A stretch of DNA of 61,298 nucleotides, the filler included, from Sphacelaria rigidula (taxonomy: Eukaryota): assembly GCA_964200075.2 (NCBI GenBank). It is 10 parts of 10 records of this genome, joined end to end, with 100 filler letters (N's around TTAATTAATTAA, not from the genome) between each part and the next. Parts side by side here need not be neighbours in the genome. Positions count along the whole stretch, not along the records: positions 55,260 to 61,298 come from CAXNAA020022637.1; 9 more parts are not named here. One strand, 5' to 3'. The first letter of the stretch is position 1. Each line of letters opens with the position of its first letter. This document shows, in pieces, positions 13,413-61,298 of the stretch. A model generated the notes under the pieces. It saw only the letters and a program-made list of their open reading frames with translations. It did no database searches and was not told the DNA's origin. Position numbers and translations under genes: made by a program.

Positions 13413-13423
13413 GTGTAGGGGGG

Positions 13424-13500
13424 CGTACTCATTTGTTGCTTGCCTTATAATAGTCGTTCGACCATTCACCAAGCATCCGTTACGAGACGAAGCTATCTAT
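13424..13500 (-). mobile_element. Very short 3'-terminal LINE copy flanked by homopolymer runs
   Basis: Minus strand reads C18 (13502-13519) ... CGTCTCGTAACGGATGCTTGGTGAATGGTC...AAGGCAAGCAACAAATGAGTACG then C6 (13418-13423). Confidence 0.85.
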
Positions 13501-30400: not shown

Positions 30401-31410
30401 GGGTCTGCACGATATGTGAGATGCTGAGCCTCCAAAAAACATCTTTGTCCGACACAGATGCTGTCTGTACGGCTGAGACGAGCACAAGGTGACGGATGGT
30501 TTTGGAGGGTGGTGACCGACCGGGATCAAGATCAGCCCCTCGCTGCAAATCTCCCCGCTATGGGGGAAAGATGATGATGAATGCAGCACTCCTTCCCCGT
30601 GGNNNNNNNNNNNNNNNNNNNNNNNNNNNNNNNNNNNNNNNNNNNNTTAATTAATTAANNNNNNNNNNNNNNNNNNNNNNNNNNNNNNNNNNNNNNNNNN
30701 NNCGACACACCCGCCCCCCCGAGACCGCCCCCCCCCCCCCCCTCCGGCGGTCGTCGTTTTTTTTTCACAATAGGAAACGCTCAATAAATAGCCATGTTGG
30801 GGCGACTTGGGTGAGGTAGCGCCCATGATTGTTGGCCCTATCTGCCACCACAAGATACGACGCACATTGGACGCAAATTGGCGGTGCAGATAGATGCGTT
30901 GAGCTTGATTGAGCAAGCATTACAAGGCATTGTGGTATTTGTCTGGTCTTGTTCTTGTCGTGGAAGTGTGATGTGCAATGTATTGCCGAAACTCATAAAT
31001 ATAACTTGGCCTTGACTCCGAAGGTACGCGAAGAATTAAGGCTTCATTAACACGGATTTTGATTTTCGATATATATATATATATATTATTTATTTATGTG
31101 AAGGATTTAGTAACCCCCCCCCCCCGCGCGCTCGAAAAACTCCAGGATTCAAGAAAGGGGCATAGGGTCTCGATTTTGTGGGGGGGGGCACTATCGCATG
31201 CAGCAAACATGCAGCACATCTTGCTCCTCGGGCGAAATCGGCGGAAGAAACTGCCGGTATAGATGCCCGAACATGCGCAAAGCATATACCCAAGCGACGC
31301 GTTTCGATGTCTCCTACTTGCTGTACATCGTAGCAAACCTAACAGACGCGCGACGACACGGTATACGTGATATGCTTGGCAGCCAACAAGGGTCGACGGA
31401 CATACTCGAC

Positions 31411-33194: not shown

Positions 33195-33805
33195 GCCGAA
33201 AGAAAAAAAAAAAAGTTGATTCGGAACAGAATCCGACATCTGTTCGCCCCGATACGCACGCACCCACAACGCAACCCCAGATTTAGCAACATGAGGTTGT
33301 TGCCTATAGTCTACATGACATGCGGACGAAGTGCCAGCGCCTAAAAGTACTGACAGCGCGTGTACGGCCGTGCCTCCTGAGTTGAGGACCTCTACAGACA
33401 ATACCAGAATTTGTACCGCACAGAATGTCATCATCCACAATGGGTGCCGGCACAGATCGATGTTTGTTTCACGGCGCAGAAGTTGCGTAGTAGGTCATAA
33501 CGTGGAAGTGAACGCACCCGCGTGTCAGAACATGCATCCAGCGATGTGTCGCGCAGTCTGGGCTGCAGAGACGCCGTTTTGAGGGCGTATGGACGGCATG
33601 ACCCACAATCCGTGTTCGCTCTGTTCACCGGGTGCACTACCCCATCACGTGCCGCCGAACAGCGTATATGTTATCTGTGTTGTGTTGTATCTACGTGCCA
33701 AGTTTGAAGCCGGATGGTGGGGACACGGTGGAGGAATCCACGAACAAAGTAACGCATGAAAAGTGGGAAATTCGGTACTGAACGCTCGAAAAGATACATG
33801 AGGTG
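33195..33805 (+). repeat. Dispersed ~600-bp unclassified repeat, copy 1
   Basis: Collinear with 58608-59223 (e.g. ATGAGGTTGTTG...GTCTACATGACATGCG, CGGCCGTGCC, GTGCCAAGTTT, AAGATACATGAGGTG). Confidence 0.85.
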
Positions 33806-35829: not shown

Positions 35830-36443
35830 CAAGGCTGTGTTCTGTAGGGTACGGTTTTCTGTATACCCGGGGTATTCTGCCGGGTATTTACCGTACCCGA
35901 CAGTTCTTTGACTTCTGTAAGACTTTCATACCCCTACCCGACAGTTCTTTAATCTCTGTAGGACTTTCATATCCTTACGCGATAGTTCTGTAATCTCTGT
36001 AAGACTCCCGAATCGTTACCGGGGCGTGTGGGTACGCTCTTGATAAAGCACCTCATTGCGGGTACGGTTATATGTGCAACCTCCACACGCTACCCTAGTT
36101 GCTGTGAGTTCTGTAAGCCTCCCATATCCTTACCCGACAGTTCTGTGAGTTATGTGCAAAACATTTACCCGTACCCGGAGCGCGGGTATGCTTTTGAAAA
36201 AATACCCGATTGCCGGTACCGGTTTTCTGTAAGCCTCCCATACCGTACCCCACAAGTTCTGTAACTTCTGTAAGACTTTCACCCAGTACCGATACCCGAC
36301 AGTTCTGTGAGCTCTGTAAGCCCCTCTTACCCCTACCCGGGGTTAGGGTATGCCGGTATAGATATACCTGATTGCAGGTATTAGCGCAGGTATATACGTA
36401 CTTTGGGGAGGTACGGATACAGGTTCAATCCAAACACAACCTC
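35830..36443. mobile_element. Diverged inverted copy of the 23277 hAT-MITE family
   Basis: Starts CAAGGCTGTGTTCTGTAGGGTACGG. Interior TACCCGACAGTTCTGT motifs are the reverse complement of those at 23277-23855. The right TIR is degenerate (AACACAACCT). Confidence 0.8.
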
Positions 36444-37620: not shown

Positions 37621-38020
37621 CGAGGTCGAACATCAATTTGCGTTTCTCCTCAAAAGTCGCCTAGAATAAGCAAAAAAAAGCAAAAAAAGGTGAAGTAGCA
37701 GAATAAAAGCTCATTTTCTTCTTTTATTATGCACTACCGCGGTTCTCCATTCGAATTTCCAAAGCACCACTCTTAACAACTGCGACACAATATTCAGCTT
37801 TTGTGTATTTCGTGCCTTTGGTCGTGATATATTGATTTTAGTGTGGAACCTTATGTAAGCCGTATCTCGGGATGGATGACGAATTACGTGAACGTGGGAG
37901 TATCTCCCTTCTCCGCGTGCTCCACGGAATGTCCACAACAAAACTCGTCGCCATTTACTTCATGTATCGATTGGGGTTTCATAAATACTCTAGTATACAC
38001 CGTATCTCCATAGAGTAATA

Positions 38021-40767
38021 CGAGTTGGGCCAGCCTACAAACTGATTTCAGCTCTTGAAGCAATATCTCATCGACACAGACGAGTTGGGCCGTCATCCGC
38101 ATATCGTATTAACCGTCGAATGAAGATGAAGGTTAATGAAGATGAAGGTAAAAAATATGGGCCCATACTTTCTCTTCGATTAAACCCGATATCTAGTCAT
38201 CCCTATACCGTATGGAGATAGCGTCTACACTAAAATCTATATGAAACCGGAAACGGTACATTTATAGCGGATGATGACGATTTTTGGTACGGAATTCCCT
38301 GGAGCACGGGGATACGATAGATACCCTCACCTTCACCTAATTCGTAATCTGTCTCGAGATATGGCGCACATAACGTTCTATACTATAACCAATATATTAC
38401 CAGTAGAGGCACTAGATATCCTACTGTAAACCTGGATATCGCGTCTCACTTTTGTGAAACTTGTGCTGTGAAGTTTCGTATGGAGAACCTCTACAGGCTG
38501 TTTCACAGGAAAAAAAACAAGTTCTATCATCAGCAAATGCCTTCTGCAATACTCACCCAGAAGTCGCATACATGGTATCATACTGACCGCAATGAACAGA
38601 CGAAGAGGGTGACATAGCCGCATTTGTTTTGAAGGCTTTAGCGGTGGCGCTATGGGCAAAAATGTGTCTCGACCAATGAGCGCCTTTCAAACTGTTGCGA
38701 AATTGAAAATACGACTTCCAAGCCCAATTTCCACTGAATCCCCACATGCTTCAAATCATAGTGATCGTCATCACCTCAAGAACCTAACAGGAGAAACGGA
38801 TTCGAAAACGGTTCCAACGGGATCGAATTATACCCGAAACCCGTAATGTTTCGGTGATGTGGCGTTTGGCATCGTCTAATTTCCACTCATGATACGCAGG
38901 AATAACGCAGGGAGCCTCGTCACGATTTCCCTTATATCTGTTGTAGAAAAGCTCAGATCATCCTCACACTTGGCAGTTCCTTCCGTAGGTATTGATTCCA
39001 AATGGAACAATTGTGCTCTTGGCAAGGGTTCGAAGTTTCTCGGTTCTCTTACGACTTCCGGGGATCCCAGTACAAAGACCCCCGAAAAACGGTACAGAAT
39101 GACTTAAAAGAAAAAATAATAACATGATGCGTCCCAGGATGGTCCAAGGAACATACGCACATTTTTCGGTGGAGAAACTCGAAAATCTCATACAATTTTC
39201 CCTTCCTTGACGTAAAATTCCCCCTAAAAAGATGTTTTCATACTCAACCCAAGTAGTTGGGAGTTTGCACGTTTTAAGCTCACATCCTCGCACATACGCG
39301 CAATCTTGACGCATTTATTAGAATTTAGACCCTGAAACTTGCACAAACGTGCTTGAAATCATCACGCAAGTTTCGATCAACGAGGTTTTTCTATTTCTTG
39401 AATTTTTCACCGTTTTTCGGGGGTCCGACGGGATCCAAGTCGTTTTTTCCGAGGTCATCCATTCTGGGACCCCGGCAAACCGGCACGAAAGTCTTTTTTA
39501 TCCTTTTTTTCGCGAATGCTTTGCCGCCGCAAAACCGAAGGAAGAACCCCACATTTTTTCGTGGCCAAACTCGATTAACTGGTGCTTGAATTTCCATGTT
39601 CACGTCGAAAAAGGCCTTAAAACGCCATTTTCATGTCAAAATCTACTAGTTTGCCGTTTCACCGTGGCACGGCAAGGTTCAACGCACAAACGCGAAAAAC
39701 TTCACGCCGTTTTAAGGAGTTAGACCCTGAAACTTTGTACAGGTGTTCTATGGGTCATTACGCAACGTTGCAAGGAGAAGGTTTTTTATTTATTATTTTT
39801 TACCATTTTACGGGGTCGAATTTTTACCGGCAAAAGTGGGACCCCGGAAAAACGGTGAAAAAGTAAAAAATTAAAAAAGTAAAAAAAAAAAACTCGTCCT
39901 TGCAAAGTTGCGTAATGACTCATAGAACACCTGAACAAAGTTTCAGGGTCTGACTCCTTAAAACGGCGTGAAGTTTTACCGATGAGTCTATTTGGGGTTT
40001 TTTCCGTGAACCAGCCTGTAGTGCAGAATACAAGTAAAAAACAGCATTTTGGCCTTTTTTCGCTTCTTCAATTTTTTCCTTGTTCCGGGGAGTTTTCAGG
40101 AGAAATGAACATTGTTCTCAGCCCTCATCTCTATTTTTTTCCTCAATTTTTAGAGTTTTGATTTGAAACTTTGCATGTAGAACCACAGAGGTATGCTGCA
40201 TAATATATATTTATGTACACGGGCCTTCAATTATTTCGGGGGGGAGGAGAAGTTCGGGCGTTCTCGAAAAACAAAAAGTCGAGTTACCATACTGAAACGC
40301 CCTAAACCAGTGAAGAAAAAATGGAAAATCAATCTCATCCATACTTGTTGGTGCATGATCGCCTAGTGAGGTTCTGCACAAAGTTTCGGTACACAAACAC
40401 CAAACGTGGGCCGGTGAACGGCGTGAAAAATGCTGTTCTGAATATCCACCGTTCCCGGTACTTACAGGCGAGTTCGCAATTTTCTACTTAGAGGTCAACC
40501 CTGAAATTTGGTATGAACGATTAAAGGGCATGAAAAAAATATGTAGGATTCCAATTTTCTTTGTTTTCCTCACTTGGGGGCAATCAGCAGTGTTTGGGTT
40601 TTGTAAAATGCCCTTAACTCAAGAAAGAAAAAAAAAATGCAACACCGCACAGTTAATTTGTCATGACCTGTTGATCGTCTATACTAGATTTCCGGTTCAA
40701 CTCTACAGGTAGAAAATTGCGAATTCGCCTGTAAACTCCAAACCCGCTCCTCGGCTAGCCCAGCTCG
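38021..40767. mobile_element. Second 10848-family element, inverted and inserted into the first (TA TSD)
   Basis: TA-CGAGTTGGGCCAGC ... GCTAGCCCAGCTCG-TA. The interior is collinear with the reverse complement of 10848-11992, including the hairpin (~40466-40730). Confidence 0.85.
38494..40018. mobile_element. Third TA-flanked non-autonomous element nested in the second; internal ~280-bp hairpin (~39697-39977)
   Basis: TIR CAGGCTGTTTCACAGGAAAAAA versus rc CAGGCTGGTTCACGGAAAAAA. TA at 38492-93 and 40019-20. The host sequence is continuous across the insertion. Confidence 0.85.
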
Positions 40768-41689
40768 TACGAATTACTACACACGGGGTGTAATCAACGA
40801 AAGAAAAATGACCCAGACTTTAGAGCAGATGGGCACATTTCCCTTCATTCGACGGTGAATGCGATGTATGCAGATCACGGCCCAAGTAGGCTGTCTCGAT
40901 GATACATATTGCCTTGAGAGCTTCAACCCGTGCCAACGCTGGCCCAGCTCATATGACTGCGGCATACAAGATCATGACTACCCCCTCCCCCCCCCTAACC
41001 TCACCCCCCACCACGACATAAAAGATTATGAGTATAACCCCACCCCCGCCCCTCCCCGCTCCTTTTTTGTGGAGTTCGAAAATCAGTCGCGCCCGTAACT
41101 TATACACCTGCCTTCAACGTGCGTGCAACCTGTAATGGGTTCCAACCTATACCCCGGAACCGTCTCGCAACGTCCGGCAACGTCTCCAGCAAGGTCCGAC
41201 AACGTGACGTTCCCGACCTTGCCACACAAGGTACCTTGCAGAACGTGTGGAACATCGATTCAGGCATGTTCCAGGCACCTCAGTGGCCACTACGATGGTA
41301 CAATTGCCTTGAACATGCCTGCGACATTTCATGGATTCCAACCTATACCCTGGCAAGGTCAACTTTCTGACCCTCCATGGCAAGGTACCTTGCAGAGGGT
41401 CTGGAGGGTCCATAATTTCATCCTCCAGGCACCCCAGAGGCCACGTGTGAGAACTTGAACCCCCGCCCGGACAGCTGCTGCATCTTGAAGTTCAAGTTAT
41501 GTCCTCGCTAAAACAAACCTGGCATGGTGATGAAAACGAGATTGCACCGTGTTCTTCCTATTTCATATGAAAAATCGAATCTCTCAGCCGCTGCTACAAA
41601 TATCCTCCTTCAGCGTGGTACCTTCCTGAGGGTGTGACTACACCGCAGATGATATGATACGATACAATAGTCCCGGTTGGAAGCACCAT

Positions 41690-45384: not shown

Positions 45385-47330
45385 CGCTCGAGTTCCCGGC
45401 GAGATAGCTCTTTCCAGTCTCTATCTTCGTATAGTACTCGCCGAAAGAATTTCCCATAATCATACACGTGGTGCATCAGCTCGGCACTGCTATAGTCTTT
45501 CCAGGAGGTAGCACCTATGGGCAAAAGCTTCAAGGCATCACTACGTGGGGAAGCGGGGTGCTTTGAGTACGATGGCGGGGTCGAAGAAACTGTGGGGTGA
45601 TACAGGTGCAAAAGGCTCATGACGCAGTATGGGGCAATGGGCTGTGGGAAAATATATGAGGAACTGTGATCAAATGAAAGGTGTGGACGATGAAGACGAC
45701 AGGTATGTGCCAAAGTGCGATGATGCTATACAGGGAAATATCGAAACATTTTGATATTTTGCAAGGAGCCGCACCAGAATGTACGTTACTCGCACCAGGG
45801 TGTACGTTACACCCTCTCTACTCGAGGTATTCCTTGATGACCTGATACTAGCATTAGACATGGCAAAGCAAGGGGTGAAGTTGCTGAAGAAATTGGAAAC
45901 AGTGCAGCTGGCAGCAGCTAAAATAATACTTTGATGCGGAAACGGTGCAAATGGTAGCAGCTAAAAGAATACTTGGATGCCATAAAAATAGTGAACAAGT
46001 TGGGAACAGTACAGATTGCAACAGCTCAGAGAATACTTGGATGCAGTGAAGTTGGTGAGGGAGCTGGGAACAGTACAGATGACAGCAGCTAGGGGAATTA
46101 CTTGGATGCTCGAAACAAATGAGTACGCCCCCCCTTTTGGTGAACGAGTTGGGAACAGTGCTGATTACAGCAGCTAAGGAAATTACTTGGATGCTCGAAG
46201 CAAATGAGTACGCCCCCCCTTTTGGTGAACGAGTTGGGAACAGTGCAGATTACAGCAGCTAAGGAACTTACTTGGATGCTCGAAACAAATGAGTACGCCC
46301 CCCCCTCCTTTTGAAGTCTTTCCCTTTTCCCCACCCGACAGTGCCTGAAACAACGGAAAGTCCTCGACAATCCAACATGGTGACATATACAGGCAATGCA
46401 GTCCGACACGAGGGCAAATTCAGGGGTCAAGTGGAATGTGGGTGCAACGTTCCAGTTTGGTCCCCCTCAAGGTGGGACGCAAACACTTCGGGTATGAGGT
46501 GTTTCGGATGGGGTGGGCGGATATGGAAGGAACTTCTTGCTTTTGAGACAGCGGTGGTACGTGTGTAATGTTTACGGCCAGTCCAGAGCTCGAAGGGAAA
46601 CGTGTCAGACGGTAGCATGGCGTCGGGTCGCCGGGTAGGGTACGATTGCGCACGAGTGTGCGTGAAACGTACTCTCTCTGGGGCCAAGATTTGGACAATT
46701 CTGTAACCTTTTCAGCAGCCGTCCCCTGGGTTCTCGAATCCTGTGAAACTGTAGACATAATCATGGCAAAAATAAAATAGACAAGGCATGCTGAATAAAA
46801 ATATAATTATGAGGTACGTTGTACTAAATATACGGAGACAAAGCGCAGAAATGACAAGAAACATGATCTCACACGCATGAGTTTTACATTGATGGTCATT
46901 GGGCGAGTCTCTTCTAGTTGTATGCCATACCCTAGCTGAGCCACCATGAGACGATCGGATTGTGGTGATGAAGTCTTGCTGCAGTTGCACGGCACATGAG
47001 TTTGACAGCAAAAGGAGAGCGCGCGTTTACCTACATCGTGCAGCAATACTGTTGGCTTTCCAACTTGTTTAGAATATCGGTCAGTGGGGCGACTAGAATG
47101 CTACGCTCCTGGACAAACTGTCCAAGGTACCCGGTGGGTTTTGAAACGAACGTAGTTTTTCGACTGTATGGACGTGAAGTCTGAGCAATTGCGTTGCGTT
47201 TGGAGGGGGCTGGTTGTATGCCGGTATTATCGATTAACAGGCTAAGGAACCTGTGAGACCCTGCAGTAAAGATATATTTGGCGAATTTGGCGAATTTTAC
47301 CAAATATAAAATCGTGTAGTCGACAAACCT
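45385..47330 (-). mobile_element. Degenerate Ty3/Gypsy pol remnant (RT thumb, integrase C-terminal part, Tudor-like tail)
   Basis: 47300-47060 RFLSLLIDNTGIQPAPSKRNAIAQ...TGYLGQFVQERSILVAPLTDIL fits the Gypsy FLG....GI.P.P.K..AI...GY...F......APLT.L motif. 46750-46570 DSRTQG...ELSKSWPQREYV / PDAMLPSDTFPFELWTGR resembles the integrase end. 45540-45385 LPIGA...VYDYGKFFRRVLYEDRDWKELSRRELE. The order is collinear with Gypsy pol. Confidence 0.8.
45876..46305 (+). repeat. Tandem array of a short internal LINE segment; the last three 85-bp units each end in the LINE 3' terminus plus a C-run
   Basis: G(G/A)AACAGT(G/A)CAGAT..CAGCAGCTAA...TACTTGGATGC (= LETVQMAAAKxxLGC, cf. 10695-10762) is repeated ~6 times. 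GAGTACG+C7-8 at 46121, 46206 and 46291. Confidence 0.9.
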
Positions 47331-49120: not shown

Positions 49121-49181
49121 CCGGCGTTGGAGGGATGCGAGGTCAATGGTCTTATGACTATGGCATGCATGATCATGAGTT
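49121..49181 (+). mobile_element. LINE 3' terminus (type B end) followed by C13
   Basis: GGGATGCGAGGTCAATGGTCTTATGACTATGGCATGCATGATCATGAGTT then C13 (49182-49194). Confidence 0.8.
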
Positions 49182-51932
49182 CCCCCCCCCCCCCATCGTA
49201 GCATCACTCCAGAGACGTTGTGAGGTATGACGATGTGGGAGAAAGCGCGAGGCCGTGCATTAGAAATCATGGAAGACGCAAGCAGTGCACGCACGGCGCA
49301 GCCACAGCACCTACGAACAAACCTCTGCACGAGTAATTTGTGTTTTTAACTGTGAAAATCAGGTCAGGAGATCGTTATTTTTTTTCCGTGTATCGCGATT
49401 CACCTCCTCTGTGTTTTTATGCGACTTCAGTGGTAATCCCCGGTTTAATATCTCACAACACGTCAAATTTTTACGATACATTGAGGTTTCACAGCATGCT
49501 AAGGTTTTACAACATATTACGGATTTATGTTCAATATAACTTCGCAGTATCTTACGGTTTCACAATCACCCCAGGGCTATTCAGTCCTATGAACGCTGAT
49601 CGAATAGCCCTGTCGTTATGGAAACAACCTGAAATTCCTACCGTCGGCGAGCAATCTTATCTCGAGACGTTGCTCGTGTTTTGAGCGAATTCGTTGCCGG
49701 CGTTTGAAATACAATTGACCGTTTGTTAAATGAAATCTCGACAAACAAATTATTACCGCGACCGAATGCGTCGTCGGTTGAGTGCCAAGGTCAACTTGAA
49801 TAGCAGCAAATACTTGAGTATACGAACCCAACACGACTGGCATCTGTTTCTGTCAAAGGTGGGGTGTGCACGTAGCCTGTTTCGTGCGGAAGGTGACCTA
49901 AGAGATTGCGAAGTGTGTATACCCCGCGCGGTCGGTACTTTTGATTTAGTCACAATTGGTTCAGAATTATGCATTTCTGGCACCTGGTACTCTTTATGCT
50001 CGTCGTATGAGCTCAACCACTTGTGTCATTAGTAGCTGCATTGTCGCAACATATATGAAAGTCGCAACGGCAAGTAAAACGTACTATACATTTGTCAACC
50101 CACGCTTGTTGTGCTTTACTGTACTGCGCACTACCGAACTGAAGTTGCTCTGTGTTGGAATATTGCACGAGGAAGTTTCTATATTTTCCTTCCAGTGCTT
50201 CCCGGCGAAGATTATCACAGAAACAGAGACATGAAGACAAGCAATGATTCAGTTTCTCTGTGCGCGAGTAATGCTGCGGTAGCCCATCTCACTAAAGTGG
50301 CTGGTTTGAGGAGGCAAAATTCACATGTGAAGTGAAATGGCGAAAGTTGAGCACACCGAACAGCTGGGAATTCCCAATCTTGGGATCGCTTTCACCAATA
50401 TCGCCAAAATGAGGCGGCGCTTTCTGCAGTCTAAAACCAGCGATCATGAGCTGTATGGTCATTTCTTTCCGGGACAGACGGGTTTGATGGAGGGCTATAT
50501 TGCGGCATCACTCACTCTGTAACACCGAACAGTCATTGCTTGGACATGACCTTGCACTTATATCTCTGCGTTCTCAGACGGTAACCGAATGTTATTATTA
50601 TATCAATTTCCAATAATATATACCGAATTCCAGGACCCAAGTGCTGCCATGTATTCGGAACCCAACACGGTCGAGTGCCTCGTGTCACGATGTGCTTCAA
50701 ATCCAGGAATGTTACCCGGGAAATATTGTCTCCTATATCCGGATGCCAGGCTCCAGTGCAACAACCGCAGTGAGTTTCGAGCCCAGCTCGGATGGGGCCA
50801 GGAACCACAGGTTCCGAATTCAAGTATCACGAAATACGTTTACGGGAACTCGTCGACAGAATCCACGGTTGAACGTAGCTTTCGTCCCGTTGAACTCTAA
50901 GGCCAATCCTAACACCAACGGCAACCCAAGGCATATGCCGAGATATTTCGGGCAAAGGAGGTGGTAATGAATGCCCTAAGGGCAACGCGTGCATTAGCAG
51001 AGCTCCAATCGGCGCCGTAGACACCGATTTGAGGAAATCGTCCGTCCTGCGCACGCTGGCGGGTACCTGGGGCTGTATGTAAGTCCCCAAAAGATATGGC
51101 CTACACTGAAGCGAGATATTCGTTAAAATAGCTGGGAACTTGTTTTCGACGGGTTCGCGTGAACTACATACGGGTTCTCACCGTGACCATCGGTTCCATC
51201 GCTGGTAAAGATCTCGAACGCTCCTGCTAGCGAGGGCATCCGCGTGCGCATGAAACGTCCAGCGGATATGTCATTCATTGGCCAGAAATCTAAGTAAATA
51301 ATGCATCATCCTATCGGATCCCCAATCGTTAAGGCGATGTCCATCGGTAAGCGGGGAGGAAGCCGGATCCTTTTCCCGACTCTTTGGACGTTAGTAATTT
51401 ATGTTTTGCCTCATTGTTCGAATCTCGAGGATGCCCAAAGCTGTGTACGCAAGAAGCAGAAGCTGAGGGAGGGATGTAACTAGAGCAGAGGGTGTGGACC
51501 GAGAGTTAACCCAGAGTTGTCGTACGATATGGGGGATACGGGAGGGAAAGGGGGGATGCTTGATAGCACGCCAGAAGGGGCGTTGATTCACGGGTGCATG
51601 TGTTCAAACTGCACCGTCACACACACTCGCTATGCCCTCGCATGTTTGGGGATAATGACGCTGTCACACGTTGATACCGCGGTTATTCACAAGAAAAAAG
51701 TTCGGTTTGCAGCGGCCCCTCAACGAGATTCCTGTGTCCAAGAAGTGGCTGGCACCCCTTCTCCCCGGCCCTCACCACCAATCATAGATAAACCATGCGC
51801 GTCGGACCGAGCAATCTTAGCAGGATGAAGGTCACCCTTCATGCGACTCGCCGAACACACCACGGCGCTTCGCGCTTGGTGATTGATTGCGAGCCTGGTC
51901 GGGTGAACACTCGGCGTGCTCCGTTCTGGCTT

Positions 51933-51988
51933 TAAAGGGATGCGAGGTCAACGGTCGTATGACTACGGCATGTAAGATCATAAGTACA
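51933..51988 (+). mobile_element. Degenerate short LINE 3' terminus (type B end)
   Basis: AAAGGGATGCGAGGTCAACGGTCGTATGACTACGGCATGTAAGATCATAAGTACA followed by CTCCCACC. Confidence 0.7.
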
Positions 51989-53769
51989 CTCCCACCTATC
52001 ATAGGATTCCTCTTGAATAATATTCTCTGCGATTGAGAGGAGGCTGAGACCACTGACGCTACCAATTTCTCGAAGCACAACGGCCACGAACGAGGCGTCT
52101 CGTGCAGTAGGCACCCTTTGTACCGCTATATGAAAATTGGTTTGCCATACAACTAGTAGCACATCGGGAGGGGGCGTGACACGTGGAAACGCGGTGAAGC
52201 TCTGACTCAAGGTCGATTTTCTCCTCCCTTTCCCCTGCTTCACGTTGCCTCTCGCTTTGACAGGGGATTTCCGACGGGCCCAGGGATGTGTGTGATATTC
52301 CCGTTTAACGTAGTTGTTTTTATCGGAGGTGACGAATCGGAGAAATATCTGCCTCTGCTCACTATCGAAGATGCGCGACCAGAAGAGGTGCACACATAAG
52401 AGAGGTTTTGCGCTGTACTCTGTGTAGAGTTGGAGATGGTGCACTATTGTGAATATAATATTGGACAACTGTTCTTGCAGCGATCATCGTAGTAATCTAG
52501 TTCTTGCGTGTCTACGATATCTCGTACATGTGCTACCGTGCGTTCCGACACGCCTCCACCAAGCTCTTGAATTTGCTCTGCTGTATCAGCTGCTCCCATC
52601 ACCACTGTCACCTTGTCTGTCGTTGCAGCTGTTCACGCCACCGCTGCTGCCTCTGCCGTTGTCTCTTCCCCCTCAGTTGAAGAGCTCACACGACCGCAGG
52701 CCGGTTGACGACCTCGAGAACGGATACCAATGGGGTTAGTTTTTGCGGTATTTCCCGCGGCTGATGTGGATGTTGCTACATCAACTTGACGTCCTCCCTC
52801 AAAAATTACAGCGGGACATGATCTCCCGCCAATTATTTAGGATATCCTAGAATATGGTGAAGGAAATAACGGCGGACGTTTAGCGTTTCCACGAAAATAA
52901 AATGGTATCGTCGAAGTTTTGCACGTTCGCAATGAGCTGTGTAACGATGGTTCTCCCGATGTATTACGTCATCCTACGATAGTCGAGGGGGGCGTTTTGT
53001 TCCACAAAATAAGGGCTCACATCGCGTCAGATACCCAACACAGTCGCGGTGCGATTGTGTTTGGGTGAAAACAGTGTCAAGCAGTATGAATGCATGAGCA
53101 TCATCTATGGGTAACAACCACGTTCGAACAACCGTTGTTACTTTCAAAGACGGTTTTTGAAATATAATTTCGTGGAAGAAATATCCCAAAACTCTGCCCC
53201 CCCCTCACCTCCAGACTCTTGGATTGGCGTCAAGTGGCAACAGTGCTGTAAAACAAGCCACCAGAACCTTGACATGAAATGTACAGACTGCCACCGTACC
53301 TGTCCCATGAACAGCCACAAGAAAAAAGAAAGTTTCGGACCGACAAACACAATAGACACGCAAAAACCTAAATAACCACTTTTGTTCCCCCTAGAAACAC
53401 AAAAGATGGATGTAGACATTATATAACAAATCTGGCCTCGTTTTAAATCCTTTCTTTTCCTTATTCTACGTTTTCCCCCTCCCATACGACTTAGTCTGCT
53501 ATGTCGTTCTGTTCTACCCCTCTTTTTTTTTTTTTTTGTTTTTTTTTTTTTTTTTTTTTTTGTTTTGTTTTTTGTTTCGTTTTTGTTTGGTACGTCTATT
53601 TTNNNNNNNNNNTTTAATTCTTTTCTTTTACTAATTATAGGTTTTCCCCCTCTTATTCTTCTTATTCTGTTTTTTCGTTCTGTTCTCCCCCTCTTTTTTT
53701 TTTTTTCTGTTCCTGTTTTTTTTTCTCCTTTGGAGCGTTTTCAGTTTCGTTTTTGTTGGGTACGTCCAT

Positions 53770-53874: not shown

Positions 53875-55086
53875 GCTACCATAACACAGTCCGGACATGA
53901 ACATGGAATGAAGAAGCTAACCTTCATTTTTCTTTAACCTGCCATAACACAGCCCGGATACAGACTTGAAATAGCGGGAAAAAACAGATCTACTTCCCCT
54001 GGGCAATACGGGAAAGATAAGAAGAACACGAATGGGGTAGAAATGCTGAAGTTCCTCGAGCATAATGAGATGAAGACGCTGAATGATAGAGCACAAAAGC
54101 CAAGGGCGCAATTGACACGGGCGAGGAAACGCAAAGGGAAGAGAGAACGCTCCGTTCTTGACTATATAGTGGTCGAGCAAGGGAATAGTGAAGAAATGGA
54201 AATACATGTATACCCGGAGGACGTGGGAACTACAGATCATTGCCTAATATGGGCAGAAGGCCAACAGACGAGAGCTGACAGAAATGGGCGGCGTAGGAAG
54301 CTGTACAAATGGAGAATCGATAAACTAGATGTGAACAAAAAATGGCGAGAGTTCCAAGAAAAGATGACCAAAAATGCAGTGAATTTTTCCGAGCTGTTGG
54401 AACGCGTAGGCGCAGTTGATGGAGAAATCGAAAGAAATCGGGCAGGAGCGAAGATTATAGAAGGATTGGAGCAGATGGTCAAGAACACAGCGAGTAAAGT
54501 CATGGGGAGGAAACTGATCGTATGCAACATGACAGTAAAAAGTTGGGATGATGAAGTGAAAGAGGCTAAGAGAGTAAGAAGAGAGTAAGAAGAGAGGCCC
54601 ACGTGAGATACATATCGAGTAAGCTACGGTAGAATGGGAAGAGTGTACTGAAGTTTGAAGAAAAAAGGTAGACATATGGTACAGAAGAAAAATAAGGGAG
54701 TATGGGAAGATGTGGTGAGAAAAACAAATGAAGATTTCGATGGCAGGATGAAACAAATGAATGTGAGTAGGGATAAGAGGGATTATGGAAAACCAGGCAG
54801 GAAAGAGGGACAAGGGGATAGCCACACTCCGGGCACAGAACGGTAAAATGGTCAGCAGTTCGAAGGGGAAGAGAGAAGTGCTAGTCGAGCACTACCGCAA
54901 ACTAGGAACACCAGAAACAACCACGGAGTTCGAAAAGGAATTCGAAAAAGAAATCAACGCTCGGGCAGAGGCAAATGTAGAGGCGTCAAAACGGGAGGGT
55001 AGAGGCTCAAAAGAGTTGCAGACGAGGTTCACCAGAGACGAAGTAAAGGAGTGCGTAGCTAAACTCAACAACAGAAAGGCAGCAGG
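53875..55086 (+). mobile_element. Second long copy of the LINE family with ~2-kb internal deletion
   Basis: The 63-bp 5' repeat and AAAAAACAGATC(T/A)ACTTCCCC (cf. 6560-6580) are joined directly to the endonuclease region (cf. ~8591). ORF 54043-54588 contains SVLDYIVV and DVGTTDHCLIW, and the copy continues to KLNNRKAAG. Confidence 0.93.
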
Positions 55087-55730
55087 ATGTACTCATGATC
55101 ATGCCGTACATCCTGCTGCCTTTCTGTTGTTGAGAAAGGCAGCAGGGGGGGGGGGGGTGNNNNNNNNNNNNNNNNNNNNNNNNNNNNNNNNNNNNNNNNN
55201 NNNTTAATTAATTAANNNNNNNNNNNNNNNNNNNNNNNNNNNNNNNNNNNNNNNNNNNNATAAGATGCCCAGTACCAATGTACCGCGCAGATATCGGAAC
55301 GGTTTTTAATGTGAAGACAAGAACAGAAGTCGACAAGTCAAGGCGTCAGGAAACGGGTGCGAGAAAAAAACATGTTAAAAATCTACACGCGATACAATCA
55401 GATCTTGTGCAAGTACACTAGGTAACCCGCATTCACACAGACTGCACGATGAGCAGAAGCAGCTCAAGATGGAAAAGAGGCCAATAACGAGGTAATCGAA
55501 AAAAGGGCGAGGAGAGATGTACAGAAAAAAACGAAAAAAGAACGTAGCGCCATCGCCATTAAGCACCTCCTTACTCTTCACAAGCAACAGGGTTAATACC
55601 TTTTCGATCTGCCACGGAGCGAAGTTGACTTTATTGCGGTGGAGGAAGTTTAAAACACAAAATAGCGGTACATACGGGAGGGGGTGGGGGGTGGATCATA
55701 TTTCACCTCGAAAACAAAAGCAGCGCACCA

Positions 55731-56006
55731 TCACCAGCTATTCCCTCCACCACCACCGCCCCTGCCTCTCTTCCTCCCACTGCCACGACTACCCCCAAAA
55801 CTCTCTCCGAACAGGCCCCCGCCCCCCCTACCCCCTCGGCCTTGAGTACCTCTACCCCCTCCCCTTCCTCGCCGAGGCGTTCCTCCCCCCCCTCGAGTAG
55901 ATGCACCCCCGCGTGGTCGTGGTGGCTCGTCTGCCCCCTCGAACGTGCCGCACTGTTCATCCTTGGGCCGTGGACATGTATAGAACTGTCGCCCTTGATT
56001 GGAACC
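55731..56006 (-). CDS. Last exon of a tandem GRF-type zinc-finger protein (second half of a finger + RGG/Gly-rich tail)
   Basis: Acceptor TGCCAG|GGT. Reads GSNQGRQFYTCPRPKDEQCGTFEGADE...RGGRGGGG...GNSW*. 276 nt, phase 0. Confidence 0.88.
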   Translation of the reverse strand, partial: GSNQGRQFYTCPRPKDEQCGTFEGADEPPRPRGGASTRGGGGTPRRGRGGGRGTQGRGGRGGGGLFGESFGGSRGSGRKRGRGGGGGGNSW

Positions 56007-56899
56007 CTGGCAATCGATTTTCCACAGGACGGAAAAGAGAGGGGATGATAGATGGGGAGGAGAGGGAATGATGTACACGCAAGTAGTGATTGAGAAAACA
56101 TAGCCGGTGAAAGTTGTGGTATTCGTTGAGCCTAGATATTATTGGAATCTGCGACAAGCGGTGAGACTAATGTCGTTGAACCCTAAGATCTCGTGGAGAT
56201 TTCCTCGAAAACGTGGACCTGTCGGCGGTGGGATTATTTTTTGGTCAAAGCTCGAAGGCAACGAATTTCCCATCGAATGGGTGCGGGGGGTGTCATGATT
56301 CATCCCCCCTGTTTGTATCAGTAAATACGCGCTGATAAGCGTCGGCATATATCGCGAGACCGGCGTTATCTTGGCCACCCCAAGAGAACCGACGAGCTTG
56401 GATCATGTCGTGGATGCCCTTGGATAATGCCAGAGATACCTTGGGGTTATGTCCCGGATACCTGTGTTGTACGTCTTCAGAGTGGAAACTTCGGTAAAGT
56501 TTTGAAGTGTTGTCTCTGCAGGAACAGCAAAACATGCACAAGATCTCTTCGAGGCACGCATTGTGACCCAAGAAAATATATACTTGTGTTGCATATCTCC
56601 ACGACCACTTTCCTTGCGTCCTCCAGGGGGACGGAGCGTGAGTTCGACGTTTACTTATGCGGAGTTATATGGAAGAGTCAAAAGCGAGACATCCGCAACA
56701 TGCGAGATATTGAGGCTCTCTGTTGCGACAGCCCACTACTGGAAACTGCATGGCACATATTTCTCGATCTCCTTGCGTGCGAATCAGCGGGCGTGGGTCT
56801 CATTGGTCGAACCTCAACTGCAGATACTCGTTACACCATCACACAAACCCAGCCATCTTATACTAAGGGAGTCCCAGATAAGTGTTACACAGATGTGTG

Positions 56900-57215
56900 A
56901 AGAGGCAAACAAGACACGCTCACACACGAACCCGCCGCCGTGGTCCGCACGGCATAGTCGGTATTGCAAGCTCTCAAAACCTCTTCAACCTCGGCAAAGG
57001 CCAGCGTATCGACCCAACCATGAGCACCCGACAATGTGCGGGAGGGGTTCCTTTCATCAAATTCATTTGCACAAGTGTAGCAAGGACGTACAAGCAACAA
57101 TGGCCGTGATATCGATCTTCAGCGATATGTCGGCACCTAGACGGCACTCAACGTCGGAAACACACCCAAAACAGGCGTGCCGCTGGACATCACACCCACG
57201 AACCTCATCGATTCG
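56900..57215 (+). pseudogene. Possible Mutator (MULE) transposase remnant inside the intron
   Basis: RIDPTMSTRQCAGGVPFIKF, VISIFSD and TGC CGC TGG (C)AC ATC ACA CCC ACG AAC CTC (C-R-W-H-I..N-L with one indel) echo MULE D.T..T....P, SD and C.WH motifs. The spacing is shorter than canonical. Confidence 0.25.
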
Positions 57216-57253
57216 AGACACTGTTACCGTCACCACTTCTCTCCCCCCCCCCC

Positions 57254-57533
57254 GGGACGTGAACGAAGGTGGGATGAAACCGTTTGATGCATTAGACAGT
57301 AGGGATAAAACGATGGCTATACTAGGAGATAGATGGTGGCCAAAGATGGCGAAACAGGACGGGGATAAGATATGTAGAAGGTTTTCGTGTAATATATGGA
57401 AGAAAAGTAATGAGCGCCGGAATGTTGGAGGTGTCTCTATTACGAGTAGAACGGTGCTCCGTCTCGAAAGGGTTGCGTGGTCAATCGTCAAGGCAAGCAA
57501 CAAATGAGTACAGCATGCATGATCATGAGTACA
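57254..57533 (+). mobile_element. 5'-truncated LINE copy bracketed by C11 and C7, carrying both 3'-end variants in tandem
   Basis: DVNEGGMKPFDALDSRDKTMAILGDRWWPKMAKQDGDKIC...NVGGVSI...KASNK* (TGA 57505-07), then GTAC-AGCATGCATGATCATGAGTACA-C7. C11 at 57243-57253. Confidence 0.93.
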
Positions 57534-57582
57534 CCCCCCCACGCCGCTACCTTGGATTGGCTCATTGCAAGAACCACTTCAC

Positions 57583-57807
57583 CTCCTTTCGAACGGTCCT
57601 CAAGGCACAAGTCTCTTGGTGCCCCTCGCACAGCCGTCCATCCCCCCCCCCCCCCCCGCTTCCACCCCCCCCGCCTCTTCCTCCTCCCCCTCCCCCACCG
57701 CTGCTATAGGGCATACCCCCTTGCTCTTCGTCCGCCCATGTAAAGGTCTGACACCGCTCACTGTCTGGGCGTGCACAGGTGTAGAATTGTCGCCCCTGGT
57801 TAGGGCC
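57583..57807 (-). CDS. Internal exon of the GRF zinc-finger gene (not in the ORF track in this frame)
   Basis: Acceptor TCCACAG|GGC, donor GAG|GTGAAG. 225 nt open: GPNQGRQFYTCARPDSERCQTFTWADEEQGGMPYSSGGG...DGRLCEGHQETCALRTVRKE. Confidence 0.9.
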
Positions 57808-58607
57808 CTGTGGATCACGATACGCAGAAAACGATCAAGCAAGGGTACGAGTCACGTTCTGGTGTTTTTATAGCTAGTTCGTTTTTTTCTTTTTTGGGGG
57901 CAAGAAAGGAATATACGGAGCGATTATAGGCTTCTGAGTCGATAAAAAGGCAAAATCATGCCTTTGCTTTTCTTTCTGTTTTTCGCTGAAGGGTTTGCCG
58001 CCGGTCATTGCCTAGGCGGCCCGCAGGTCCCTACCGTGGGAAACTGCTGCGTCTGCTCAGGTGACCGTGGTGAATCGTACTGCAAGACAAGCACCCACTA
58101 CAGCGGGATGCGTACGCGACGTACGCCGTGTTGACTTCGACCGCGGGTTCGCTCAACTGGACGCATGTGATTGGTATGTACGAAGATGCCGATTACCGAT
58201 GAAACGAACGTTAAATGCAAGCGGATGAGCTCAGGTCTCACAGCGGGCGCGATCAAATTTTGATAAACTCTGACAGATCAGATAAATAGGGGGCGAAAAG
58301 CATACTTTTGCAAGATGTATTGTCCGTCGTCGCAGCACACTGCCAGCGTGCGATTTTCCGCAGCTCTCATCTGACCACTTTGCTCTCTTGTGTTTATTTT
58401 GTACACCCCCTTTGGTCCTGTAGCCTTCAAAACGTTCAAGGGCAAGTTGAGTAGGGTAAACTCAATTACGGGGTATTGTGAAAGTCACACTTGAAGTACA
58501 CAAATTGGGGAAGGGTGTTAGGAGTCGCACCTGAAAAATAACTGGAAAACGATCCCCTGACACCCTACCCCAATTTGTGTACTTTCAGTACGACTTTCCA
58601 GTCTTGA

Positions 58608-59223
58608 GCCAAAAGAGAACAAAGAGGAAACTCGGGACAGAATGCGACATCTTTTCGCCCCAATACGCACGAACACGCTGTGCAACCCCAAATTCAGCAA
58701 GATGAGGTTGTTGTCTGTTGTCTACATGACATGCGATCGAAGTTTAAGTGCGTAAAAGCACTGACGGCGCTTGCACGGCCGTGCCGCCTGAAGTGAGGAC
58801 CTCCACAGGCGATACCAATATAGATACCGCGTAGAATGACAGCATCCAGAGTGTGCTCAATACGGATCGATGTTTGTTTGCCGCCGCAGGAGCCACCCAG
58901 CAGGTCATGATGTGGAAATGAGCGCATCTGCGTCTCAACATATGCGTCCGCTGACGTCTCCACGCAGTCTGGGCCGAGGGTACTCCGTTTCGAGGGCGTA
59001 TCGATGGCATTGCCCAAAATCCGTATTCGCTTCGTGCGTCTGGCGCACCACGTAAAACGTGCCGCCGACCCGGGAATACGCTGTCTGTGTTGTGGTCTCT
59101 ACCTCTGTGCCAAGTTTCAGGCTGGTTCGTTCAGACCCGGCGGAGAAATTCACAAGCAAGCAAAGTAATGCTTGACTTGTACTGAAAATATAGTACTAGA
59201 ACCGTCGAAAGATACATGAGGTG
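58608..59223 (+). repeat. Dispersed ~600-bp unclassified repeat, copy 2 (intronic)
   Basis: Collinear with 33195-33805. Confidence 0.85.
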
Positions 59224-59463
59224 CGTATGATTTTTGTGTGCGGGCATCTTGGCATTTGAGTTGCGTTTTTTTTTCTTGGCGTAAGACTGTTTCAAAATAC
59301 CTCGCAATTGAGTATACCGTACTCGACCTGCCCTTAAACGCTTACCTTGCTCCGCATTTTTCTCCTTGGTACCCAATACGATCTGCACAACACATCCCAC
59401 CGTGCTTGTAGTTTGCGCTGACGACTCCCTCCACCTCCGAGCTGTATGTATCTAATGGCTTAC

Positions 59464-59685
59464 CTCTTTTCGGACCGTCCGGAGCGCACAAGCTTCCTGA
59501 TGACCCGCGCATACCCTGCCGTCGCCCCCCCCTCCCCCTCCGCCTCCCCCACCGAATAATCCGCCCCCTCCGCTGCCGCCACCGTTAGCGCCCGCTTGCC
59601 CCGCTTCATCCGCCCAAACGAAGGTATTACACCGATCTGTCTCCGTGCCACTGCAGCAGTAGAACTGTCGTCCCTGATTTGCACC
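59464..59685 (-). CDS. Internal exon of the GRF zinc-finger gene
   Basis: Acceptor GCTCAG|GGT, donor GAG|GTAAGC. 222 nt open: GANQGRQFYCCSGTETDRCNTFVWADEAGQAGANGGG...DGRVCAGHQEACALRTVRKE. Confidence 0.92.
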
Positions 59686-60599
59686 CTGAGCGCAAGAAAT
59701 AATAAATGACGAATGCAAGAAAAATCGACGGCAACAACAACCACAACAACAACAACAGCAGCAATGAATAAGGTGTGAAAAAACAAAAGGGCTGCATTGT
59801 AGATCAGCTAGGTGACGTCAGACCCCCTCTACGGGACACCACTACGCCAAAATACAACCTCCTCTTTTCATACGCGGAAAATAGTCGGCCTCGAAAAAAT
59901 GTTCGGAGAATGGCGTCACCCGTCCCGCCGAGACCCGTGTCTCGACGACACGAAATAATTGATAAAAGGTTTCTGCACCGTGCCCGTCCCCCACAGTGCC
60001 GTGACTGCGGTGAATGAATAATATTCCGTCGACTTTGTGAACGCCTAAGAACCAAGTGCCGAGGAAAGAATATTCGTTGACATTGAAGCCTTGCAGGCCT
60101 CGAGCTTGGCGGACTCGAAAGCACCGACCAACACAATTCTGTCCTCATGTGCCCAGAATACAGAATCTCCACGAGTGTCGAAACAGTCCTTGAGCATCGG
60201 TGTCAGGGGATGCTAGGTAGGCACCGCTGCCAGTCCGCCTCTGGGAGAAGGGACATGCCATCTAGTGTCAAGGAGCATGTCGTTGCTGACCCTTCGCGTG
60301 TATGCCTTTAGCGTACGTCTAGGACACTATAGCTTCTCCAAGAATCTCAGAATTCACCAACTCAGCGAACCCAAAAAAAGTACAGCTCGAGCTATATATT
60401 TTACTAAGCTGGTGGCTGGGGGGAGTACACGTCCATGTGTGGTTTGTGTTGGGCCGTGTGTGTCACACCTGTTGATGCGCTCGACCAGTTGCTGCGCTCT
60501 ATGTCCGCCTTCGAGGAAGCATATAATAATTGTTCGTTCGCGCAACTCTAGTGCGCTTATTGATACATGTTCGCCGTACGTGTACACAAACGGCGGAAT

Positions 60600-60900
60600 T
60601 GTGAACGTCTACAAAACAAGAACACGTTTTAGGCAGTACCCGTAGTCATAAGCACGATGTATGGATGGTGTACGATTGGCGAGATCAGCAGGAACGGCCA
60701 TACCACGTCGATAGCACCACATCCCGTCCGCTCTGTGAAGTATATCGGGAAAACTCCAGAATGCGCTCTTCAACTCGGTTTGCGCAAACACACTTTATGC
60801 CGATCGCGGGGACTGGTCATCGCTCTGACCAATGACATCACTCGAGAAACCGAAGCAGACTTTCTGAGAGGCTCGACTTTCCTGTGTCAACTAAAATAAG
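60600..60900 (-). pseudogene. Possible Copia integrase remnant
   Basis: FAQTELKSAFWS...ADLANRTPS resembles Copia ML..S.LP..FW..A...A..L.NRTP. The spacing is irregular and there are no other clear motifs. Confidence 0.3.
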
Positions 60901-61258
60901 TAACGGTCTTCAGATCTCTTCATTGTCCACCTTTTGTTTCGCGCACGTTTCAAGGGCTTCTGCTTCCCTGTCATGTCGCTTGCGGTGGCTGGGGGTTCTC
61001 AACTTTTCACCTCGCTCCAGCAAGTGGTCTTTCCTTCATGTTTACCTACACTCCTTGGCTACGTCTTGTATGAAGCACTGGGGGCGTCATCTTATAACAA
61101 ACCACCTCGGTTTTGAAGAAACAAACATCTAAATTAATACACTTCGTCTGTCCCATACGTTGGGTGGAGATGTTTGTATAGGCCCTAGACCGTGTCCGAC
61201 AATTTCTCGATTTTTCATCGCTTTTCAGCTTTATGTGGTTGGACTCCCCCCCCCCCCC

Positions 61259-61298
61259 TTCCGTCTCGAAAGGGATGCGTGGTCAATGGTCAAACGAC
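61259..61298 (+). mobile_element. Short LINE 3'-region copy starting immediately after C13, cut by the window end
   Basis: C13 (61246-61258) then TTCCGTCTCGAAAGGGATGCGTGGTCAATGGTCAAACGAC, matching 57458-57490. Confidence 0.85.

Follow-up and report, generated by a model that had tools for sequence, protein, structure and literature searches.

A family of long interspersed nuclear elements (LINEs) whose copies end in runs of cytosine was analysed in a 61,298-nucleotide (nt) stretch of DNA from Sphacelaria rigidula (GCA_964200075.2), referred to here as the window, where one 5'-truncated copy at 57254-57533 lies between C11 and C7. All recognised 3' ends of the family are followed directly by a C-rich tract and a majority of the resolvable 5' junctions also abut one, and it is suggested, with a probability of roughly 0.6, that these elements integrate by target-primed reverse transcription (TPRT) in which a templated oligo(C) end of the element RNA is primed by the nicked (G)n strand of a C-rich target. 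The trait is real and unusual, but it is already recorded for the matching families of the brown alga Ectocarpus. The window was treated as DNA like that of a brown alga or a close relative, since the best named protein match is an Ectocarpus gene model and 'algae metagenome' is among the labels of the sequencing runs in which piece 3 occurs. Nine spacers of the form N44-TTAATTAATTAA-N44, starting at 6042, 12183, 18323, 24463, 30603, 36743, 42882, 49021, and 55160, split the window into ten pieces of ~6,040 nt, and repeats common to several pieces are therefore dispersed copies rather than local duplications; an additional N10 gap at 53603-53612 is separate from these spacers.

The copies were mapped using a combination of blastn, nhmmer, Pfam domain searches, and tblastn with P0002, a protein relative of the window family. 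The 3' ends were scored for at least six C in the 8 nt downstream, with all 8-mers of the window on both strands as the background. This analysis showed that 9/9 ends in the window carry such a tract as compared with 0.86% of all 8-mers (P = 2.5e-19, or 3.4e-15 for 7/7 ends when three tandem units are counted once), with the caveat that the ends were not all located blind to the C-runs, the end at 40981 having come from the C-run list. Outside the window, four metagenome contigs were retrieved by a back-translated search that used the C-terminal alignment, and a 19-mer scan of prokaryote genome bins returned two algal contaminant contigs and L007, which was rejected as a chance match in a true bacterial contig. 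The external element copies L001-L006 lie on six different and unrelated metagenome or metagenome-assembled genome contigs, all end TGA(G/C)TAC(G/C), and have at least nine C in the next 10 nt (6/6). The 3' C-run proposed in a first-pass annotation of this DNA was thus confirmed both in the window and in the external copies. Two old mini-copies from one genome bin (L010 and L011) show interrupted C-rich 3' tracts, and on the 5' side a C5 precedes one of them while the other lacks any run. The 3' tracts are often compound (C9TC9, C11GC5), and the C-runs range from 6 to 18 nt in length, with the two sides of one insertion differing (C11/C7, C18/C6). An A-run was found at none of the 15 ends inspected (nine in the window, six external), all of which carry C-tracts. 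Retrotransposons that lack long terminal repeats (non-LTR retrotransposons) normally end in poly(A) or in short A/T-rich repeats, and LINEs ending in oligo(C) within C-rich duplications are unusual among them.

The copy at 57254-57533 (plus strand) corresponds to the last ~280 nt of the element, as shown by blastn (86% identity to L003, 82% to L002), tblastn (residues 1281-1360 of P0002), and nhmmer (E = 1.1e-42). From 57243 to 57540, the order is C11 (57243-57253, plus strand), GGGACGTGAACGAAGG..., ...GGCAAGCAACAAATGAGTACA GCATGCATGATCATGAGTACA, and C7 (57534-57540, plus strand). Frame 1 of 56506-57510 ends ...VKASNK* with the TGA stop at 57507-57509, followed by GTAC(A/G), so that the 3' untranslated region (UTR) of the element is 5 nt long (GTACG/GTACA), in agreement with the earlier proposal of an open reading frame (ORF) that ends ...KASNK* shortly before the end of the element. 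Family homology starts at 57254, immediately past C11, in blastn comparisons with the copy of piece 3 and with L003, and the P0002 alignment enters from residue 1281 at 57274. A 333-amino-acid (aa) open frame upstream of 57254 showed no similarity to the family by tblastn and no Pfam match, and taken together with the onset of homology at 57254 this indicates that the copy is truly 5'-truncated at the C-run. The A-type end of this copy, ...AAATGAGTACA, extends to 57512 and is followed at 57513-57533 by a 21-nt second terminal unit, GCATGCATGATCATGAGTACA, of the B type; an alignment showed the A-type and B-type ends to be versions of one terminal stretch of 60-70 nt, the B-type having diverged. 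The stretch 57491-57533 therefore comprises two tandem terminal units, GGCAAGCAACAAATGAGTACA (A-type) then GCATGCATGATCATGAGTACA (B-type), with no intervening C-run, and the 21-nt unit could be the product of a second insertion or of a template switch at the extreme end.

At the 5' junctions, four of the six that are resolvable in the window (57254, 13501, 13417, and 61259) have at least seven C in the 8 nt upstream, and inclusion of L005 brings the tally to 4/7 (P about 2e-7 at a cut-off of six in eight). These 5' runs occur at four different internal truncation points, and no target-site duplication (TSD) was seen outside the runs. The runs at 57243, 13502, and 61246 have unique DNA upstream and not the end of another element, and are therefore not simply older tails. 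The first-pass annotation had proposed that 5'-truncated copies start after C-runs; this holds for the four junctions above and fails for 53876, 51916, and L005:349, the first two being copies that it had itself named, correctly, as lacking a clear 5' run. The C-run coordinates that it listed (57243-57253, 57534-57540, 49182-49194, 46128/46213/46298, 61246-61258, 13418-13423, 13502-13519, and 12356-12371) are all correct, and the junctions do fall on several unrelated contigs, namely pieces 3, 8, 9, and 10, and piece 7 contributes a further one.

Contigs from four sequencing runs (X1, X3, X4, and X5) belonging to two studies were aligned to piece 10. Contigs span C11 and C7 with few or no differences, and the runs are therefore present in the DNA of several samples: C11 is crossed without gaps by X1 and X3 contigs, and also by an X4 contig which has three gaps along its whole length, at unspecified sites, while C7 is crossed by X1 and X4 contigs. 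Joints from 57540 to 61260, in which a B-type end and C-run lead into a copy starting ~58 nt before the element end, were found in 48, 37, 39, and 5 contigs of X1, X3, X4, and X5, respectively, and the plurality consensus of the loose ends upstream of 61260 shows C-runs in 4/4 runs (738, 540, 697, and 235 contigs). In X1, which contributed 58,396 contigs on this stretch, the summed depth of the tail bin reached 4.65 million as compared with about 61 in the unique flanks, summed depth in this comparison not being equivalent to copy number. Head-to-tail arrangements are also found within the window, as in the minus-strand array of piece 3 (C18, 78 nt, C6, 1,046 nt, C-tract), and short derivatives that retain the 3' tail, partly in tandem, include three 85-nt units, the B-type tails at 49121, 51916, and 40952, and the joints of the four runs.

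The protein encoded by the family was identified through several lines of evidence. Pfam RVT_1 was detected in a window copy at 9726-10217 (E = 2.8e-14), and a protein search with the window reverse transcriptase (RT) returned nine relatives, among which P0001, P0002 (1,360 aa), and P0003 (1,328 aa) end GQMTKASNK. P0002 and P0003 carry an APE endonuclease and RT in a single protein (Exo_endo_phos, E = 3.4e-12 and 8.1e-15; RVT_1, E about 1e-31) as well as a C-x2-C...H-x4-C motif C-terminal of the RT, and membership of the window family in this APE-RT group is seen in the alignment of the window copy at 7594-10823 to residues 2-1092 of P0002. The assignment to an APE-type LINE lacking poly(A) and with almost no 3' UTR, as first proposed, is thus upheld by these domains and by the 15 ends. 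The element has one ORF of ~1,350 aa comprising an N-terminal part that carries no family assignment, the APE endonuclease, the RT, and the C-terminal C-x2-C...H-x4-C motif, with the stop codon 5 nt from the end and then GTACG(C)n. P0006, an Ectocarpus sp. gene model, shares 353/391 identities with P0003 when gaps are included, and about 98% outside the gaps. A protein atlas look-up with the family RT gave generic RVT_1 clusters only, and the viral contigs searched held no relatives of the family. Copies of about 30, 78, 280, and 1,046 nt, together with longer ones, have a common 3' end and variable 5' truncation points; the window copies are 72-86% identical to the external copies and are therefore old, or derived from another species. 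The 57254 copy is likely to be a 5'-truncated brown-alga LINE corresponding to those listed as RTE-X (RTEX-1/2_Ec32) in the Ectocarpus catalogue, an assignment based on the shared traits, on the Ectocarpus homologue, and on the lack of any other (C)n-ended Ectocarpus LINE in the published table.

It is proposed that each genomic copy carries its own C-run, so that its transcript would end in oligo(C). At a (C)n.(G)n tract or C-rich site, the APE domain would nick the strand rich in G, and the freed ...GGG-3' end would pair with the oligo(C) of the RNA and prime reverse transcription, a counterpart to the use of poly(A) by L1 at T-rich nicks or to microsatellite-specific LINEs. A staggered second cut in the same tract would leave C-runs on both sides, that is, a C-rich TSD. 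Every insertion would lay down a new C-run and hence the next target, which would give rise to tail-to-head arrays and to a share of the C/G homopolymer excess of this DNA. The wider proposal, at about even odds, is of a (C)n.(G)n-specific LINE family whose templated oligo(C) primes on the G strand; such a family would generate its own insertion targets and form tail-to-head arrays, and a large part of the C/G homopolymers in brown-alga genomes would derive from it. The signal recognised by the RT is probably located in the last 60-100 nt, within the coding sequence, since this is the only part that the mini-copies and the published non-autonomous partners retain. RNAalifold analysis of the last 60-90 nt gave -4.66 kcal/mol with compensatory changes in 3/18 pairs, and a helix CGUCUC...GAGUACG closing the last ~66 nt is possible on the basis of this modelling, as a lead only.

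A number of observations weigh against this TPRT reading. Three of the seven resolvable 5' junctions (53876, 51916, and L005:349) have no C-run, and one of these belongs to L005, a young 5'-truncated copy which is 90% identical to L002. The loose-end consensus in the sequencing runs reaches an agreement of only 0.45-0.50, many copies being mixed. No empty allele was seen in the four runs: among the joints listed, none skips 57254-57540, and the insertion is present in every covering sample, so that we infer the pre-existing C-run at the target. The transcript ending in oligo(C) is likewise an inferred step, and the tail showed no RNA structure of statistical significance, the single folds giving z = -0.28, -0.83, -1.50, -0.44, and +0.41. 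The identity with RTEX-1/2_Ec32 is a probable one, drawn from traits and the Ectocarpus homologue. Finally, 23/33 of the C/G runs of at least 7 nt in the window lie outside recognised junctions of the family, and A/T runs of at least 7 nt are also about 3-fold enriched (53 as compared with 17 expected).

The invariance of the 3' run (15/15) as compared with the 5' run (4/7) would also be expected if (C)n were simply the equivalent of poly(A) or a simple-repeat tail, copied from the RNA into essentially unselected sites, with 5' runs arising from nesting or from chance landing in older tails or C-runs. The run at 13418-13423 is indeed the tail of the neighbouring copy, the young copy L005 lacks a 5' run, and other Ectocarpus LINEs have plain (CAA)n or (CA)n tails according to the entries seen in PMC12477816. 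However, C-rich 8-mers make up 0.86% of the window whereas four of seven 5' junctions have at least seven C in eight (P about 2e-7 when the cut-off is set at six), three of the 5' runs have no preceding element end, and the Ectocarpus curators record the TSD itself as C-rich in those entries (PMC12477816), so that a tail inserted without target selection is considered unlikely. The differing lengths of the runs (6 to 18 nt) and their inequality across one insertion (C11/C7, C18/C6) would instead fit a non-templated process, in which G residues would be added by the RT, or by an enzyme of the host, both at the nick, giving the 3' run, and to the finished cDNA, giving the 5' run, with no C-run needed in either RNA or target. 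Non-LTR RTs do add extra nucleotides at junctions, usually a few, but single-base runs of 8-18 nt at both junctions far exceed such additions. The C-run also forms part of the repeated 85-nt unit, which fits a templated run, and compound 3' tracts (C9TC9, C11GC5) are expected from a tail joined to a C-rich target. These last two points and the unique DNA upstream of three 5' runs are the reasons why TPRT primed by templated oligo(C) is favoured over tailing alone, to which we give little credence.

The arrays raise the question of template jumping, in which the RT, on leaving one RNA that ended prematurely, would resume at the 3' end of a second element RNA, so that arrays and some of the 5' C-runs would originate from one event. 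The head-to-tail arrays jointed by C-runs, the recurrence, in 5-48 contigs of each run, of joints to the same start ~58 nt before the element end, and the lack of a C-run ahead of the 21-nt second terminal unit (57513-57533) all agree with such jumps. However, the 5' runs with unique DNA upstream would need a jump that copies only the C's and halts exactly at the GUACG boundary, and arrays of equal-length units can also come from unequal exchange. Serial jumps are compatible with oligo(C)-primed TPRT and need not replace it; they probably add to the arrays, and are unlikely to account for the runs in its stead. An origin of the C/G runs in sequencing or assembly, such as poly-G read ends, draws on nothing more specific than the general proneness of homopolymers to error. 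The runs lie internally and have a fixed orientation relative to the element, whose sense strand invariably carries the C, contigs of runs from two studies cross them, and C-runs appear in the entries of the curated Ectocarpus library (PMC12477816); as they are carried by six independent assemblies, an artefact is excluded for practical purposes.

The homopolymer content of the window was compared with a first-order Markov model. C/G runs of at least 7 nt number 33 as compared with 5.5 +/- 2.2 expected, and those of at least 10 nt number 9 as compared with 0.07, while A/T runs of at least 10 nt number 8 as compared with 0.5. The view that the family accounts for many of the C/G runs holds for the 10/33 of at least 7 nt that sit at its recognised junctions and does not extend to the remaining 23, so that not all homopolymers are explained by the family; the excess of A/T runs implies that the homopolymer richness is partly independent of the LINE. 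Long C/G runs with no recognisable family tail are found at 57642-57672 (C16+C8), 30714-30742 (C7+C15), 31114-31125 (C12), and 18218-18228 (G11), and could be independent homopolymers or what is left of short derivatives that escaped recognition. If priming through C:G homopolymer pairing is correct, it would provide a natural second example, beside the A:T pairing of L1, of complementarity between RNA end and target in target choice; it would explain the tandem mini-copies and would be a likely source of the brown-alga C/G-run excess, which matters for assembly, for polymerase slippage, and for sites prone to G-quadruplex or i-motif formation.

The other copies in the window differ in length and preservation. 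A long decayed copy at 6227-10847 (plus strand) consists of 63-nt tandem repeats (6227-6513) followed by N-terminal, APE, and RT coding sequence at 7594-10823 with frameshifts and stops, and was identified by tblastn (residues 2-1092 of P0002), Pfam RVT_1, and blastn (78-82% to L002/L003). It continues at 11994-12182 (plus strand; blastn, tblastn) to the end of the piece after a 1,147-nt insert, as positions 1-1077 of L003 match 9771-10845 and positions 1079-1203 match 11994-12121 by blastn. The 63-nt repeats amount to 4.6 units in the LINE 5' region and occur at 6227-6513 and 53876-54015. The insert itself (10848-11993) was rejected as a family member with a readable target, being an unrelated repeat with no C-runs at its ends; this unclassified 1.1-kb repeat has internal inverted repeats, with relatives at 40300-40955 and 38014-38133 (pieces 7 and 2), and possibly represents a non-autonomous DNA transposon. 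On the minus strand of piece 3, a 1,046-nt 5'-truncated copy at 12372-13417 ends ...AAATGAGTACG (blastn, 73-75% to L001-L003; tblastn; nhmmer, E = 3.7e-37), with its 3' C-tract CCCCGCCTCCCCCCCC (CCCCGCCTC8) at 12356-12371. C6 at 13418-13423 is common to the 5' end of this copy and the 3' end of a 78-nt, tail-only mini-copy at 13424-13501, which lies head-to-tail with it (blastn, 84% to L002/L003; nhmmer, E = 2.1e-13) and has C18 at its own 5' junction (13502-13519), all of these on the minus strand and the C-runs being read directly from the sequence.

On the plus strand, an RT fragment at 45519-46305, recognised by sequence comparison and tblastn, leads into a tandem series of 43/64/85-nt units that derive from the 'thumb' region of the RT, of which the last three 85-nt units (46052-46305) each end ...CAAATGAGTACG with C7, C7, and C8, the runs lying at 46128, 46213, and 46298. 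B-type tails (...GGCATGCATGATCATGAGT...) are located at 49121-49181, 51916-51988, and 40952-40981. The one at 49121-49194, cut by the start of its piece, reads ...GGCATGCATGATCATGAGTT (49121-49181) and is followed by C13 (49182-49194), whereas the old tail at 51916-51996 ends ...GATCATAAGTACA (51988) with a degraded C-tract, CTCCCACC, and has no 5' C-run (both plus strand; nhmmer and sequence). The tail of ~30 nt at 40952-40995 (plus strand; C-run list and sequence), ...GGCATACAAGATCATGACTAC followed by CCCCTCCCCCCCCC (CCCCTC9), adjoins an unrelated repeat. The copy at 53876-55086 (plus strand; blastn, tblastn) joins the 63-nt 5' repeats to the coding part of the APE-RT linker, has an internal deletion of about 2 kb, and shows no 5' C-run. 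At the end of the window, 61246-61298 (plus strand), C13 (61246-61258) precedes the first ~40 nt of a tail copy, TTCCGTCTCGAAAGGG..., which is cut by the window end (97% to L002/L003 over 39 nt; nhmmer, E = 1e-9).

Two further candidate tails on the minus strand were rejected. The one at 55096 falls within a near-perfect palindrome (55064-55134) and looks like a chance match to CATGATCATGAGTAC; the region 55064-55157 comprises G13 beside this 71-nt palindrome (94% self-complementary), whose CATGATCATGAGTAC is B-type-like and probably unrelated. The candidate at 7069 shows a 22-nt resemblance only, a nearby weak nhmmer match (7007-6973, E = 0.42) not being aligned with it. Other elements of the window include a GRF zinc finger open frame at 55734-56138 (minus strand; Pfam, E = 9.1e-9), a 338-aa open frame at 1374-2387 (minus strand) in which a hAT C-terminal dimerisation domain (E = 1.6e-8) and, weakly, a SCAND3-like zinc finger mark a hAT transposase remnant, and 41/157-nt tandem arrays at 23282-23812 (piece 4) with an inverted relative at 35830-36322 (piece 6) that is 80-87% complementary, these arrays being satellite-like or transposon-internal. 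Another heavily repeated element, at 58290-59757 and 55260-55325, has a summed depth of 10^3-10^5 as compared with about 60 in the flanks; it ends (CAA)8.7 at 59732-59757, and in other copies (CAA)n is read from the loose ends at 55320-55325. The element is consistent with the RTE families that the Ectocarpus library describes by '(CAA)n 3'', and a related stretch lies at 33200-33550.

In the Ectocarpus mobilome paper (PMC12477816; Genome Biol 2025;26:320), Table 1 lists LINE/RTE-X as seven families with 16,418 copies, or 3.41% of the genome, and the best blastp matches of these families are RTEX-4_NV and RTEX-1_BF. The entries of Supplementary Material 3 (PMC12477816) annotate RTEX-1_Ec32 as 'single EN-RT ORF; (C)n 3'' (EN, endonuclease) and RTEX-2_Ec32 as '(C)n termini/TSD', give the TSD as 'C-rich' for all RTE-X entries, and describe RTEX-N1 as an element that 'can be present in tandem' and has a 60-bp 3' end in common with RTEX-1/2, whereas other Ectocarpus LINEs end (CAA)n or (CA)n. 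The non-autonomous RTE-X partners have only the 3' 60-100 bp in common (PMC12477816). The alternatives put forward in the first-pass annotation, that the family either targets and duplicates C-runs or adds a C tail, agree with the curators' '(C)n termini/TSD; TSD C-rich'. Its statement that it knew of no description of a poly(C)-specific LINE did not survive, as the trait is on record for Ectocarpus RTEX-1/2 and their derivatives (PMC12477816, Supplementary Material 3), and by the annotation's own reckoning an earlier catalogue entry refutes novelty. The trait stands there as curation notes and is not discussed in the main text as available to us (PMC12477816); RTE-X tails are likewise unmentioned in the available portions of PMC10294476, PMC11005252, PMC4640811, and PMC5753468, and a preprint on brown-alga centromeres contains none of the relevant terms. 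Among open-access papers and bioRxiv, we found no mechanistic treatment of a (C)n-specific or (C)n-tailed LINE and no LINE described with a mononucleotide-tract target. The value of the present observations as a discovery is thus limited, the trait being already on record for Ectocarpus, and a moderate interest remains in the mechanism and in the share of the family in the C/G-run excess. For annotation purposes, ...AAATGAGTACG(C)n can serve as a masking signature in brown-alga genomes.

Like the catalogued RTEX-1/2_Ec32 and RTEX-N1/N2_Ec32 (elements of 5.5-5.9 kb in the autonomous case, as far as the catalogue entries go), the window family has a single EN-RT ORF and a (C)n 3' end, and, like RTEX-N1/N2_Ec32, it has short tandem derivatives of the 3' tail, the sameness of the families being judged by description. 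It is also very abundant, as are the RTEX_Ec32 families, which are catalogued as the most abundant repeats of their genome, and the window copies and the Ectocarpus gene model P0006 fall into one protein family. The window copies differ from RTEX_Ec32 in that they are 72-86% identical to external copies, the likeness to RTEX_Ec32 being judged from traits. With RTE-1/2_Ec32, described in the same entries by '(CAA)n 3'', the family has in common that a single EN-RT ORF is followed by very little 3' UTR and then by a simple repeat, whereas its repeat unit is a single base and the C-run is also found at the 5' junction.

In L1, the poly(A) of the RNA pairs with a T-rich nick, TSDs are enriched for that base, and new copies often lie in older tails. 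The present family would resemble L1 in that base pairing joins a homopolymer at the 3' end of the RNA to its complement exposed by nicking, and differs from it in that the homopolymer is C and not A and in having practically no 3' UTR; polyadenylation cannot supply the C-run, which leaves templating by the donor copy or some other form of addition. Microsatellite- and repeat-specific LINEs were reportedly described by Kojima and Fujiwara in 2004, and further repeat-specific LINEs include Waldo, Mino, Kibi, Koshi, and Dong. Togen is a (TG)n-specific LINE (PMC4640811, in the part available). Such LINEs have the same simple repeat on both sides of most copies and at their empty sites, a 3' end continuous with the target repeat, and head-to-tail arrays. 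The present family resembles them in its arrays and in a 3' end that runs into a C-tract (15/15 cases), and a C-tract lies on the 5' side in 4/7. In contrast to them, its target would be a mononucleotide tract, (C)n, its specificity is looser, three of seven 5' junctions having no run, and it probably belongs to the RTE group, whereas the microsatellite- and repeat-specific LINEs fall into the R1, Tx1, R4, and NeSL clades.

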